From assembly GCA_048940645.1 (NCBI GenBank), contig JBHLOI010000017.1, forward strand, positions 1 to 63,511: a stretch of DNA of 63,511 nucleotides. The letters run 5' to 3'. Numbering within the stretch: the stretch's first letter is position 1; each line of letters starts with the position of its first letter. Source of the DNA: Promethearchaeota archaeon. GTDB taxonomy: Archaea; Asgardarchaeota; Lokiarchaeia; Sigyniarchaeales; SOKP01. The notes beneath the pieces are model-generated. The model was not told the DNA's origin. It made no database searches and saw only the letters and a list, made by a program, of their open reading frames with translations. A program made the position numbers and the translations under genes. Below are positions 39,783 to 49,757 of the stretch, piece after piece.

Positions 39783-40163
39783 TTAAACCTTTCCGTTCAA
39801 TTTTATCGCAAAAGTTTTGAGAAAAGATAATGCTTTAGGTGGATTTGCTTGAGGCATGGCATATGCTACAAGTATACCTCCTTGAAAAGGAGCGATTATT
39901 ACATGTCCCATCACATCATTGTTAGTTCCAATAATTCCTTCAGGAGCAGTTTCAACAACTGAAAATTCTAAATTGTTAAAGACAAAAGAGCGGGCTCCTT
40001 TAATGGCATTTAATATATTGTTCGTTTGATTGGTTAGATCCCAATTTTCTGTCTGGAAAAGTATAACCCCCGTATCAGACACAACTGCGACTGAAGCAAT
40101 TTTTATATTAGTCTCGAGGGCGGTAATTCCCAATTCATCAATGATCTTTTTTATTTCATCCAT
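39783..40163 (-). CDS. Asgard (Loki-type) profilin
   Basis: I..IIDEL...VAVVSDTGVILFQTENWDL...F.VVE...E..IGTN....GHVIIAPF.GG.LVAY..P.A.P...L..L..FA.KL follows the Loki profilin pattern (QTENW, IGTN, GH). Confidence 0.9.
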   Translation of the reverse strand: MDEIKKIIDELGITALETNIKIASVAVVSDTGVILFQTENWDLTNQTNNILNAIKGARSFVFNNLEFSVVETAPEGIIGTNNDVMGHVIIAPFQGGILVAYAMPQANPPKALSFLKTFAIKLNGKV

Positions 40164-44303: not shown

Positions 44304-45460
44304 AAAAATCAAAAATTGCAAAATCAAAAGCAGAAACATATTTCATTAAAGGTAGAGGTATTCCAAAGGGATGCCGGTTATGCTTAATAGGTGCAAAAAC
44401 AGTTTTATTTATAAATGGACTATGTCAAAACCCTAAACATTGCTATTGGTATTGTCCCATCTCTGATGAAAGAAAAGGAAAGGATTTTACTTATGCCAAT
44501 GAAATTAAAATTAAATCTAAGGATGAATTAATTAATGAAATTAATATAATGAATGCAAAAGGGATGAGTGTAACAGGTGGAGATCCTCTCTTTGATAATA
44601 ATTTTGAAAAGACTCTAGATTTTATTAAATATGTCAAGAAGAAAAAAGGCAAAAAGTTTCACATTCATCTCTATACAAACGGATTAAATTTTAGTGAAGT
44701 TATTGCTAATAAATTGGCTGAAGCCGGATTAGATGAGATTAGATTTAATCCTCCAAAAGAAAAATGGAATGTAATTCAATCCGCATTAAATAAAGGAATT
44801 ATTGTTGGAGCAGAAGTACCGGTTATTCCCAATAAAAAATATATAAAGGAACTCGAAGAATTTATAATTTATTTGGATAGAATTGGAGCAGAATTCGTAA
44901 ATCTAAATGAATTTGAATTTTGTTTTCCAAATAGCCAAAATCTAAAGGAAAGGGGTTTTAAACTGAAGAAGGGATCAATTGCCTCTGTAGAAAATAGTAA
45001 TGAGATGGCTCTTGAACTATTGCATAAGATTCACGATAAGGTTTCTCTTCAAATCCACTTTTGCCCGATAAGAGCTAAGGATTATTGGCAACTAAAGGAA
45101 AGATACTTACGACGAGCAATATCAATTAAAATGCCTTATGAAGATATATCAGAAGAAGGTCTATTATTATATGCTAAAATTGAGGGCAATGAAACGTCTT
45201 TAATAGAATTTAAAGATTTTTTACTGAATGAGATAAGGATTCCTCAAAAGTATGTATATTTTGACAAGAAGCAAATAAAAATACCATTAGCTTTTGCGCT
45301 AGAAGAAAAATTCATAGGATTACTCGAAGAACGTGAATTAAAAGGATTTATTGTAGAAATAACTCCATTTAGGGAAGATGATTATTGTCAAATAACAGAA
45401 AAAACCCCCATTAAGGTTTTTAAACAAGAGATGAATATAGATGGAGATCAAGAAGGTTAA
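44300..45460 (+). CDS. Radical SAM protein (archaeal conserved family)
   Basis: PKGCRLC..GAK.VLF..GLC.....C.WYCP, TGGDP, HIHLYT, LDEIRF, NLNEFE. Confidence 0.9.
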   Translation: MKKSKIAKSKAETYFIKGRGIPKGCRLCLIGAKTVLFINGLCQNPKHCYWYCPISDERKGKDFTYANEIKIKSKDELINEINIMNAKGMSVTGGDPLFDNNFEKTLDFIKYVKKKKGKKFHIHLYTNGLNFSEVIANKLAEAGLDEIRFNPPKEKWNVIQSALNKGIIVGAEVPVIPNKKYIKELEEFIIYLDRIGAEFVNLNEFEFCFPNSQNLKERGFKLKKGSIASVENSNEMALELLHKIHDKVSLQIHFCPIRAKDYWQLKERYLRRAISIKMPYEDISEEGLLLYAKIEGNETSLIEFKDFLLNEIRIPQKYVYFDKKQIKIPLAFALEEKFIGLLEERELKGFIVEITPFREDDYCQITEKTPIKVFKQEMNIDGDQEG

Positions 45461-45887
45461 TTTAGATGATTTGGATGAAATTATGAAAATGGAAAAAGAA
45501 ACCTTCAAAAGTGATTCTTTTTCGAAAGAAACGATGAAACAATTGATCTTACAAAATACATTATTTTTAAAATTAATTAAAAAGCAAGATAAACAGAAAA
45601 TATTAGGCTTCATAATTATCATACAAGATGATCTTGATAGGATGAACATAATTAATTTTTTAATTAATAAAAAAAATCAAAATAAGGGTTATGGTTCTTA
45701 CTTATTAACGAAAACACTAGAAATAGTTAAAAAAGTAAGTGGAATAAAAAAGATCGTTTTAAATGTTAAAACAAAAAATAGAGCTGCAATAAAATTATAT
45801 GAAGAATTTAATTTTCGAATTATAAGAAAAATTGAAAATTACTATAGAAATCAAGAAAATGCTTACTTAATGGAATTAAATCTCTAA
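45441..45887 (+). CDS. GNAT N-acetyltransferase (RimI/Ard1-like)
   Basis: QNKGYGS.LL, LNV...N.AAI.LY...F, NYY...ENAYLM. Confidence 0.9.
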   Translation: MEIKKVNLDDLDEIMKMEKETFKSDSFSKETMKQLILQNTLFLKLIKKQDKQKILGFIIIIQDDLDRMNIINFLINKKNQNKGYGSYLLTKTLEIVKKVSGIKKIVLNVKTKNRAAIKLYEEFNFRIIRKIENYYRNQENAYLMELNL

Positions 45888-46013
45888 ATTTTATCGATTT
45901 TTAAATATTTTTCTATACCCTTAAACTTATAAATAAAAACTAATATAATATCTGTAAATTAAATTTTATAATTTCCTCAGAGAAATTATTAACTGTAAAG
46001 GAGATGAGGAATA

Positions 46014-46163
46014 TTGCCGATTGATAAAGAATTACAAGAAGAAATCAAGAAAGGGGTTTCTCTCCAAAAGGTTGATGAGGAAGAAATAAGAAAACGAGAA
46101 GAAGAAAAAAAGAAACGCATGGCAGAACTTGAAAAGATCAAAGCAGCCTTAGGAGAAAAATAA
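46014..46163 (+). CDS. Unannotated 49-aa protein with WH2-like actin-binding motif
   Basis: TTG start after purine-rich GGAGATGAGGA; MPIDKELQEEIKKGVSLQKVDEEEIRKREEEKKKRMAELEKIKAALGEK*. Confidence 0.75.
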   Translation: MPIDKELQEEIKKGVSLQKVDEEEIRKREEEKKKRMAELEKIKAALGEK

Positions 46164-46290
46164 TTAAAACTTAATATTTTTGTTTCCTTTTCCTTTTTTT
46201 TATTCATTCCATATGAAAAATTAAGCTTTTCTACGATCTATTCCTTAATAAATTTAAGGAAAATGTAAATTAGATAAGTTGATTTAATAT

Positions 46291-47364
46291 TTGAAGATTC
46301 TTGAGATAGATAATAAAAATCAAGAGATTACTCTTAAAACGGAGAATTTAAATGATTTATGGACACTCTATAATGTTATTTCTAAAAATGATAATGTCTC
46401 CACTCGTACCTCTAGAAGAGTGGTATTAAGGGAAGGTACAAAGGGAGACCGAAAACCTATGCGGTTAAAATTAAACGTGGAATCAATCTCATTCCATGAA
46501 TTTTCAAACAGATTACGAATTAAAGGGACTATTATTGAAGGTCCTGAGGATTTTGTAAGCTTTGGAACATATCATACGTTTAATATTGATATAGGTCAGA
46601 AAATGACAATTAAAAAGGAAAAATGGTTAAGGAGTGAAATAAAGAGGTTAAAAGAATCTTCAAAATTTGAAGTTAATTTTATATTATTAATAATTGCTAT
46701 TGAAACAGGATTAGCAACCGCATCTCTTATAACTAATTTCAGCCATAACAGAATAGCAACAATTAGAAAAACCATTCCTGGAAAAAGATATAAACAAACT
46801 TACCGAAATAAGGCATATGAGGAATTCTTTGATGACATTAAAAAAATTATTGATGAGAATATCAAAAACATAAATATTAATCTAATAATTTTATGTGGAC
46901 CGGGAAATACTAAAGATAATTTCATTAAATACTTGAAGGAAAAGAAAAATCCAGATTATATTTCAAAAATCAATAGTATCCATGCTAGTTCTGGTACTGA
47001 AAGTGCGATTTTAGAGACTTTAAAATCTACTAAATTAAAAAATTTAAAGAAAAATGTAAAAATATTACAAGAAGCAGAAAATATTGAAAAAATTTTCACA
47101 TTGTTCGCTACTGATGCTGATTTGATTTCAATTGGAATAAATGAAGTCTCCAAAGCTTCAAAAAAGGGAGCAGTAGAAGAATTATTCTTGGCTGATATTT
47201 TGATAAGAGGTACCTCAAAAGAAAAAAAACTTCAAATCGAAGAAATTTTAACTAATGTTGAAAATTCTGGGGGAAAGTTTCACATTTTAAGTAGTGAGCA
47301 TCCCACTGGGCAGCAAATTATTGATTTAGGAGAGATTGTTGCTATTCTAAGATATAAAATTTAA
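46291..47364 (+). CDS. pelA: mRNA surveillance protein Pelota
   Basis: ENLNDLWTLYNVI, FHEFSNRLRIKG, GTYHTFNI, IPGKRY, GPG, SSEH..GQQI..LG.I.AILRY. Confidence 0.96.
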   Translation: MKILEIDNKNQEITLKTENLNDLWTLYNVISKNDNVSTRTSRRVVLREGTKGDRKPMRLKLNVESISFHEFSNRLRIKGTIIEGPEDFVSFGTYHTFNIDIGQKMTIKKEKWLRSEIKRLKESSKFEVNFILLIIAIETGLATASLITNFSHNRIATIRKTIPGKRYKQTYRNKAYEEFFDDIKKIIDENIKNININLIILCGPGNTKDNFIKYLKEKKNPDYISKINSIHASSGTESAILETLKSTKLKNLKKNVKILQEAENIEKIFTLFATDADLISIGINEVSKASKKGAVEELFLADILIRGTSKEKKLQIEEILTNVENSGGKFHILSSEHPTGQQIIDLGEIVAILRYKI

Positions 47365-49292: not shown

Positions 49293-49757
49293 ATGGCAGA
49301 AGAATTCGCAAATTTCATGCAAGAAACTAGAAGGGCTCCTCTTGAAGAGAAATTAAACGCATTTGGAGATATAGTTGAAAGGATGATGTCAATGATTCTC
49401 AGAATTCCTGATCTAGTTGATCAGTCTTTATTAACTCTTAACCAAAAAATTTCAACTTTAGAATCCCAAATTAATACATTGAATAATAATATGGCATCAA
49501 TTAAATCAACTGGAGGAAATATAGCCCCTATGATATCAGCCCCCACTGCTCCTAGCAGTATACCTCCTCCACCTGGCGGTCCACCTAGCACTTCGTCTCC
49601 TGGAGGTTCAAGACCTCCTCCTGGCGGTCCTCCCCCACCTCCCGGCGGTCCACCTGGAGGACCTGGAGCTAATCGCCCTGCCAGTCCGATTAGTTTAAGA
49701 GGCGCTATAATGAGTGAACTTAAACAACTATTTAATAAACGCAAGACCCAAGGTTAA
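49293..49757 (+). CDS. Coiled-coil / polyproline protein with C-terminal WH2- or VASP-FAB-like helix
   Basis: Heptads LNQKISTLESQINTLNNNM; IPPPPGGPP, RPPPGGPPPPPGGPPGGPG; terminal LRGAIMSELKQLFNKRK. Confidence 0.8.
   Translation: MAEEFANFMQETRRAPLEEKLNAFGDIVERMMSMILRIPDLVDQSLLTLNQKISTLESQINTLNNNMASIKSTGGNIAPMISAPTAPSSIPPPPGGPPSTSSPGGSRPPPGGPPPPPGGPPGGPGANRPASPISLRGAIMSELKQLFNKRKTQG

Follow-up and report, generated by a model that had tools for sequence, protein, structure and literature searches.

A 49-residue microprotein of Lokiarchaeia as a candidate WH2/beta-thymosin-like actin-monomer binder

A microprotein of 49 amino acids is encoded at positions 46014-46163 (+ strand) of the window, the whole 63,511-nt stretch of Promethearchaeota archaeon DNA that was analysed, and is probably a WH2/beta-thymosin-like binder of actin monomers, which is the best-supported explanation from sequence comparison and structure modelling. 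This reading is drawn from the conserved signature residues, the matching anatomy of the peptide, reciprocal profile similarity and the fusion of the same module to profilin. The gene itself is, with near certainty, genuine and under purifying selection.

The gene and its selection

The reading frame starts with TTG and ends with TAA, and its 49-residue product is identical to the one given in the original prediction. The gene's neighbors are a GNAT acetyltransferase gene at 45441-45887 and, across a gap of approximately 400 nt that contains the microprotein gene, a Pelota/eRF1-type gene at 46291-47364. The G+C content of the window is 24-33%, and a single copy of the microprotein gene was found in the source genome (3.83 Mb, 126 contigs, 89.6% complete). 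It had been described as unannotated, which held for the ORF track used at the time, where the antisense strand carries an overlapping ORF of 72 codons (45989-46207, - strand; confirmed here), but not for the databases, where the identical protein is present on 8 contigs and its homologs carry the name "hypothetical protein" in NCBI and JGI assemblies. The case shows that gene-calling tracks can miss functional microproteins in these genomes.

Among 5.8 billion proteins searched, 111 homologs of 42-51 residues were found, with 67-100% identity and encoded on contigs of up to 265 kb. A comparison of 32 distinct orthologs at the DNA level gave a pS of 0.65 and a pN of 0.085 (ratio 0.13) for the sense frame, with non-consensus fractions of 0.089, 0.044 and 0.256 at codon positions 1, 2 and 3. 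The sense frame was open in 32 of 32 orthologs and stops accumulated in every other frame, including 18 in the frame of the 72-residue antisense ORF, which is a shadow and not a gene. The shortness of the ORF, its TTG start and its position inside an intergenic gap might suggest that it is spurious, an accident of an AT-rich intergenic spacer, or that the region is non-coding and regulatory and is conserved as DNA or RNA. Such an explanation is effectively refuted by the low pN/pS ratio with synonymous change at saturation, the concentration of variability at third codon positions, the stops in all the other frames, the conserved start paired with a Shine-Dalgarno sequence, at which ATG, GTG and TTG interchange at a fixed position across orthologs, and the occurrence of the module in frame inside larger proteins.

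The features that had been described around the ORF, namely an AT-rich region upstream, a leader rich in purines and a T-rich tract downstream, were all present and were conserved in orthologs. The upstream element (TATTATAAT..TGTAAA) is located about 55-72 nt 5' of the start with its spacing kept in most of the orthologous loci compared, and in the window it includes a TATA-like TAATATAAT followed by ATCTGTAAA (45941-45958, +; about 56-73 nt before the start codon) that may act as the promoter. The leader contains the Shine-Dalgarno-like GGAGATGAGG 5-14 nt before the start (46000-46009, +), with GGTG or GGAG at -14 to -8 in the orthologs, and the T-rich tract 3' of the stop (46177-46201, +) is a likely archaeal terminator, T-runs being found after the stop in orthologs. 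The recurrence of the promoter element, Shine-Dalgarno sequence and T-runs indicates that the gene is a separate transcription unit.

The GNAT gene immediately precedes the microprotein gene and has the same orientation, both in the window's family (45441-45887, +) and in genomes G132 and G138 (L050:882-1367, +, and L046). Beta-thymosins and actin are both N-acetylated in eukaryotes. The order GNAT-microprotein-Pelota was found in family f1 and in one genome of family f3, while in G138 the downstream neighbor differs and in family f4 the neighbors are BtpA and MoxR/VWA genes. Gene neighborhood was rejected as a clue to function since the f1/f3 context is replaced in f4.

Conservation, range and likeness to WH2 and beta-thymosin

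Conserved positions were identified in an alignment of the close family (A1) and in a broader alignment (A3) of 41 representatives, each standing for a cluster at 50% identity. The invariant columns of A1 were I11, K12, K13, G14, L17, K19, R28 and R35, and L7, V15, E29-E31, K32, K34, E38, L39, K43 and L46 were conserved at a level of at least 90%. The A3 consensus reads DDELKxEIxxGxxLxKVD and then REEEKKKRxEELxKxK; R35 and E38 are invariant across this broad family and E31, K32, K34 and L39 reach at least 90%. An exact LKKV is present in many members, while in the window's genus Q18 takes the place of the first lysine.

The WH2 domain (Pfam PF02205, consensus LLxxIxxGxxLKKV) consists of an amphipathic helix ending in glycine followed by an extended LKKV segment, and a C-terminal helix is found in the beta-thymosins. 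The microprotein has L7, I11, G14, L17, K19 and V20 at the canonical spacing of this signature, V20 being counted with L7 and V15 among the WH2-signature positions of the family. An AlphaFold2 model of the free peptide based on A3 (mean pLDDT 90) predicted a helix at residues 5-13, a non-helical segment at 14-21 and a second helix at 22-48. The first of these (KELQEEIKK, 46026-46052, +; pLDDT 85-89) is a short amphipathic N-helix that would be the equivalent of the WH2 helix, with L7 and I11, and the non-helical segment (GVSLQKVD, 46053-46076, +) contains the LKKV-type LQKV and the invariant G14, L17 and K19, so that the predicted secondary structure follows the WH2 order. Residues 22-48 (46077-46157, +) form a long charged helix without a WH2 counterpart, in which R28 and R35 are invariant and E29-E31, K32, K34, E38 and L39 nearly so, and which occupies the same place as the C-terminal helix of a beta-thymosin. 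The overall form is also that of a beta-thymosin, with 49 residues, its own transcription unit and an N-helix, LKKT-type motif and C-helix in succession. A Foldseek comparison of the 49-residue model with the PDB returned no match, as expected of two helices.

The range of the family was established by a tally of 400 genomes of the phylum grouped into GTDB-based families, and the broader A3 profile gave the same range. Almost every genome of one order of the window's class encodes the microprotein (142-143 of 153). Strong matches were found for 125 of the 134 genomes in the window's family and for 1 of 1, 13 of 14 and 4 of 4 genomes of the three other families, or 18 of 19 for these three combined. 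None was found in 7 genomes of other families of the same class, outside the order there were marginal matches at most, and almost none of the other Asgard families sampled among the 400 genomes contains the microprotein. Nearly all f1 genomes have the stand-alone form, mostly as a single copy, with extra matches in longer ORFs of some of them, and no tandem-array form was seen in this family. The marginal matches of family f19 are to a related protein of approximately 60 residues that all 19 genomes of this family encode (L094-L101), which has an acidic N-terminus, keeps the N-terminal half (EELKREIKKGAKLEHV) and ends in LLEKLRAEGKLEEED, a C-terminal tail common to some members of the main family, while its middle differs. 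The motif, whose lack of conservation in orthologs would have refuted the original prediction, is clearly kept in them, with I11, G14, L17 and K19 invariant, but the family is confined to one order plus the related form in one other family and is not Asgard-wide.

The NCBI names on near-identical homologs include Prometh-, Hermod-, Hod-, Heimdall- and Thorarchaeota. An Asgard-wide range taken from these names was rejected, as the GTDB-based tallies place all strong matches in one order, and the names were accordingly regarded as unreliable for phyletic range. A separate observation concerns a 258-residue protein of family f31 (genome G368, L054:1195-1971, +), which contains an internal AELKASILSGVSLKKVDEE with a marginal match to the family profile (E 8.5e-4) and is otherwise unrelated and helical.

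The proposed likeness to WH2 and beta-thymosin found a mixed outcome at the level of sequence models. The window protein matched neither WH2 nor Thymosin (PF01290) in Pfam at E-values up to 10 (hmmscan), and by sequence is formally outside both families. A six-frame scan of its own genome with the WH2 model did not pick the microprotein ORF, the best match being a recombinase-like ORF (as read by eye) that was considered a chance match. Recombinase-like and dehydrogenase-like ORFs, also read by eye, were returned by the motif regular expressions and the WH2 scan in the same genome and were set aside as chance matches and controls. The pattern L...I..G..L.K[VT] was observed once among ORF segments of at least 40 residues in this genome versus 0.8 expected after shuffling, and the motif match alone is therefore not significant in a proteome rich in K, E, I and L. 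The part that exceeds chance is the conservation, as the residues of the motif are invariant columns of the family.

Other comparisons linked the family to WH2 domains. Among the 41 representatives, 5 matched Pfam WH2, which was the third most frequent Pfam family in this set, although P0143 (23.7 bits) alone was above the gathering score of 23.1 bits; PF01290 was not among the top 25 Pfam families for these relatives. The best natural match of the family profile in the PDB was 3m3n_W, which contains three tandem N-WASP WH2 domains (E 0.006), followed by the MIM WH2 peptide 2d1k_C at E 0.7, both chains having been solved on actin, while the top match overall was a de novo repeat protein. A search of 1.84 billion proteins with the same profile gave 58 matches at E up to 0.001, of which the only ones outside the family were P0157 (E 3.1e-5), P0163 (E 2.3e-4) and P0165 (E 3.5e-4), with 2-3 WH2 repeats each, the E-values of the profile matches to WH2 proteins being improved by summing over tandem repeats. 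P0165 (45.8 bits) and P0163 (25.8 bits) passed Pfam WH2, and WH2 proteins of the eukaryotic type aligned to profile positions 2-21 only. In a language-model feature search the nearest named clusters carried PF01290 Thymosin with a score of 0.86, which is regarded as a lead only. Taken with the profilin fusions described below, the invariant motif, the anatomy, P0143 and the profile matches uphold the likeness, while the Pfam result for the window protein and the C-helix do not.

The module in larger proteins and actin-related genes

The module was also found inside larger proteins. A homolog search for longer proteins with the family alignment returned none, K/E-rich words crowding out relatives in such a search. 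Profilin-module fusions (P0164, P0134, P0133 and L044:1017-1793, +) were found in a single genus within the window's family as well as in metagenomic relatives, and have an N-terminal domain followed by 1, 2 or 4 modules and a small C-terminal domain. Matches of the N-terminal domain to Pfam Profilin were sub-threshold (E 2.5e-4 to 8.5e-3). In a fold of P0164 from a 28-sequence alignment, the N-terminal domain had a pLDDT of 84-90 and the module region was below 50. The first Foldseek match of this domain in the PDB was 5zza_P, an Odin profilin solved with rabbit actin (E 7.9e-10, TM 0.87, 28% identity), followed by Loki profilins 2 and 1, and all of the listed PDB matches were profilin, profilin-like or profilin-containing chains. 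The structural match of the N-terminal domain to profilins indicates that the module is physically linked to a member of an actin-binding family.

In three further proteins (P0153, P0162 and P0166), leucine-rich repeats are followed by one module and then by a Zn-ribbon/RING or ribbon-helix-helix domain, an arrangement that recalls the LRR-plus-WH2 architecture of leiomodin, and P0152 consists of a ribbon-helix-helix domain and the module. The ribbon-helix-helix and RING contexts give no indication of actin and leave room for a non-actin reading. Array proteins of 479-497 residues with 9-10 modules at a period of approximately 46 residues were found in the sister family (L042:2309-3748, -, 479 residues; L043:1861-3327, -, 488 residues; P0121), including closed genomes of 4.32 Mb and 6.04 Mb, and exact look-up returned no accession for them. 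In G138 an array gene lies at C1:4726360-4727826 and the small gene at C1:2869212-2869421.

Six actin-family matches were found in the genome that contains the window. The best was a lokiactin of 378 residues (contig C57, 45550-46659, -) that has 57-62% identity to eukaryotic actins and gives near end-to-end alignments with solved eukaryotic actins (E ~1e-155). Conserved in it are the segments of the cleft to which WH2 domains bind (SLYASGRTTG, IYEGFAL and the C-terminal SVWIGGSIL..L.TF..MWI), as well as an acidic pair after FGG.

Several other genes of the window and its genome relate to actin or lie near the microprotein gene. A canonical Asgard profilin of 126 residues is encoded at 39783-40163 (-), 6 kb upstream of the microprotein. 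In a phmmer search of the PDB it matched Loki profilin-1 (E 2.6e-12), Loki profilin-2 (~3e-12) and the Thor and Odin profilins, and it aligned with the profilin-domain alignment A4 at an hhalign probability of 95.8%, while no match was found in Pfam. Downstream of the microprotein, the gene at 49293-49757 (+) encodes a 154-residue protein, for which no Pfam family passes, that is helical in its N-terminal part, has a Gly/Pro tract with the sequence GGPPPPPGG in it and carries a short amphipathic helix at the C-terminus; the same downstream position in related loci is occupied by genes for proteins of 150-154 residues (L009, L010) or 121 residues (L012).

Elsewhere in the same genome, a 400-residue protein (contig C57, L003:232-1434, -) is encoded beside the lokiactin gene (L003:1495-2631, -). 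Its N-terminal 130 residues align with the A4 profilin domain and the rest resembles a winged-helix DNA-binding part, and relatives of approximately 400-450 residues are present in several genomes of the window's family. The location of this putative profilin/DNA-binding fusion suggests actin-sensing transcriptional control. Paralogs of approximately 200-205 residues with a profilin-type N-terminal domain were also found (contig C43, L076:1504-2112, +; L067-L091). These differ from the classical Asgard profilins of 120-135 residues and have a conserved C-terminal extension that ends in IFGV in most, and a query with the L076-type N-terminal domain gave 1-5 matches per genome across the order.

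Proposed function and comparison with known systems

We infer every step of the proposed mechanism that involves actin. The microprotein would form a 1:1 complex with monomeric lokiactin, in which its N-helix would occupy the hydrophobic cleft formed by subdomains 1 and 3, while the LQKV segment would run up the actin surface beside the conserved acidic pair E26/D27 of this genome's lokiactin, which corresponds to D24/D25 in rabbit actin. The C-helix, which is conserved, would be directed toward the pointed face, as in thymosin beta-4. The free peptide could then buffer or sequester actin monomers, in competition with profilin for the barbed face, and in the profilin fusions, LRR proteins and 9-10-module arrays the module may serve as an actin-monomer handle that could deliver or line up monomers.

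Residues 22-48, with R28, R35 and the E/K pattern, equal the first half of the module in conservation and are not a WH2 feature, and the function could therefore lie in the C-helix. The main alternative is that the microprotein is a charged helical adaptor unrelated to actin, in which helix 22-48 is the functional part and the WH2-like N-terminal half a coincidental amphipathic cap, with nucleic acid, the ribosome or translation-quality-control machinery, or a membrane surface as candidate partners. The most widely conserved positions of the broad family (R35, E38) are indeed located in the C-helix, ribbon-helix-helix and Zn-ribbon/RING domains are among the fusion partners of the module (P0152, P0162, P0153, P0166), the gene is placed between GNAT and Pelota in f1 and one f3 genome and beside GNAT in G138, weak sub-threshold coiled-coil matches were found (DUF3006, H-NS N-terminal domain), the motif alone is at chance level in the genome, and the window protein has no Pfam WH2 match. 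We nevertheless regard such an adaptor as rather unlikely, as it leaves the invariance or near-invariance of G14, L17, K19, I11 and L7 unexplained, the f19 protein keeps the N-terminal half and exchanges the middle of the C-terminal half, the module is joined to profilin in several lineages, and the gene context varies, as the BtpA and MoxR/VWA neighbors in f4 illustrate.

An improbable further alternative retains actin as the partner but not sequestration. The module would bind or stabilize the side of filaments, occurring once for each subunit in the manner of nebulin repeats, or would be a building block for nucleation, the 9-10-module array being the working form and the single module a competitor or regulator of arrays. 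Tandem WH2 proteins nucleate actin in eukaryotes and as bacterial effectors, the arrays have a regular period of approximately 46 residues and were found in closed genomes of the sister family, and a helix of approximately 27 residues could extend along much of the actin subunit. The stand-alone form is however near-universal and mostly single copy in f1, where no array was seen. The sequestering monomer binder remains the reading that we favor.

In the full texts searched, which came mostly from outside subscription journals, no archaeal WH2-like protein that stands alone, no tandem array and no fusion of the module with profilin was found described. The papers found dealt with the LKKT-type motif of Asgard gelsolins, reviewed the known Asgard regulators, or concerned trypanosomatid profilin and arcadin-2 for comparison, and the Asgard actin regulators described in them were profilins and gelsolin/cofilin-type proteins only. 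The proteome and a lokiactin Co-IP of L. ossiferum are tabulated in Supplementary Table 2 of bioRxiv 10.1101/2025.11.30.690169. If the proposed function is correct, a WH2/thymosin-type monomer binder would be a third class of Asgard actin regulators, and the array and profilin-fused forms would be candidates for monomer delivery and for the nucleation of lokiactin filaments, which bears on how much of the eukaryotic actin machinery predates eukaryotes. A wider and more tentative possibility is that one order of Lokiarchaeia possesses a toolkit of WH2-type handles comprising a free sequestering peptide, profilin fusions, LRR proteins reminiscent of leiomodin and arrays of 9-10 modules, which might serve to nucleate lokiactin filaments or to measure them. 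Homology of the module with the WH2/beta-thymosin domain of eukaryotes would mean that this domain is older than eukaryotes, and would give Asgard filament nucleation concrete candidates, although simple vertical inheritance into eukaryotes is not favored by a range restricted to one order and one other family.

The microprotein shares with the WH2 domains of WASP/WAVE, WIP, MIM, Spire and Cordon-bleu an amphipathic helix that ends in glycine and is followed by an L-(K/Q)-K-V segment, predicted to be non-helical here and extended in WH2, and the spacing L-x3-I-x2-G-x2-L-x-K-V is identical. The similarity extends to profiles in both directions and to the use of the module singly, in tandem and beside other actin-binding domains. 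It differs in that the window protein falls short of all Pfam WH2 thresholds and is an archaeal, free-standing protein of 49 residues. The WH2 helix normally begins with two adjacent hydrophobic residues (LL), whereas the helix of the microprotein has one N-terminal hydrophobic residue and Q or K as the second, and the module has an extra, strongly conserved charged helix of 27 residues. At such a short motif length, sequence is compatible both with homology to eukaryotic WH2 and with convergence.

Beta-thymosins such as thymosin beta-4, ciboulot, tetrathymosin and actobindin are similar in that they include free peptides of 43-50 residues with an N-helix, an LKKT-type motif and a C-terminal helix, as well as repeat proteins of the same unit. 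The C-helix of the microprotein is longer, far more charged and differently conserved, and its contact with the pointed face is proposed by analogy.

Two systems outside the Asgard archaea offer further parallels. The profilin of Leishmania and Trypanosoma contains a WH2-like insertion, and the profilin and the insertion both contribute to actin binding (PMC10907219). The combination of profilin and a WH2-like element in one polypeptide is paralleled by P0133, P0134 and P0164, although the trypanosomatid motif is an internal loop insertion while the Asgard fusions have 1-4 whole modules after profilin and then a small domain. In crenarchaea, the C-terminal peptide of arcadin-2 binds the hydrophobic groove of crenactin at the site used by thymosin beta-4, ciboulot and the WASP WH2 (PMC5173319). 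This is also a short helical archaeal peptide on an archaeal actin, but it has no sequence relation to the microprotein and is part of a larger, crenarchaeal protein encoded in the crenactin operon.

Within the Asgard archaea, the LKKT-type motif of two-domain gelsolins (LRRV, LKHV, LVDV, LKDV) contacts rabbit actin in crystal structures (PMC9433394, PMC7444086) and is the only WH2-like actin contact so far shown in Asgard proteins. That motif is a four-residue linker inside gelsolin, without a preceding WH2 helix and not encoded by a separate gene, whereas the microprotein holds the whole helix-Gly-LxKV signature without a gelsolin domain.
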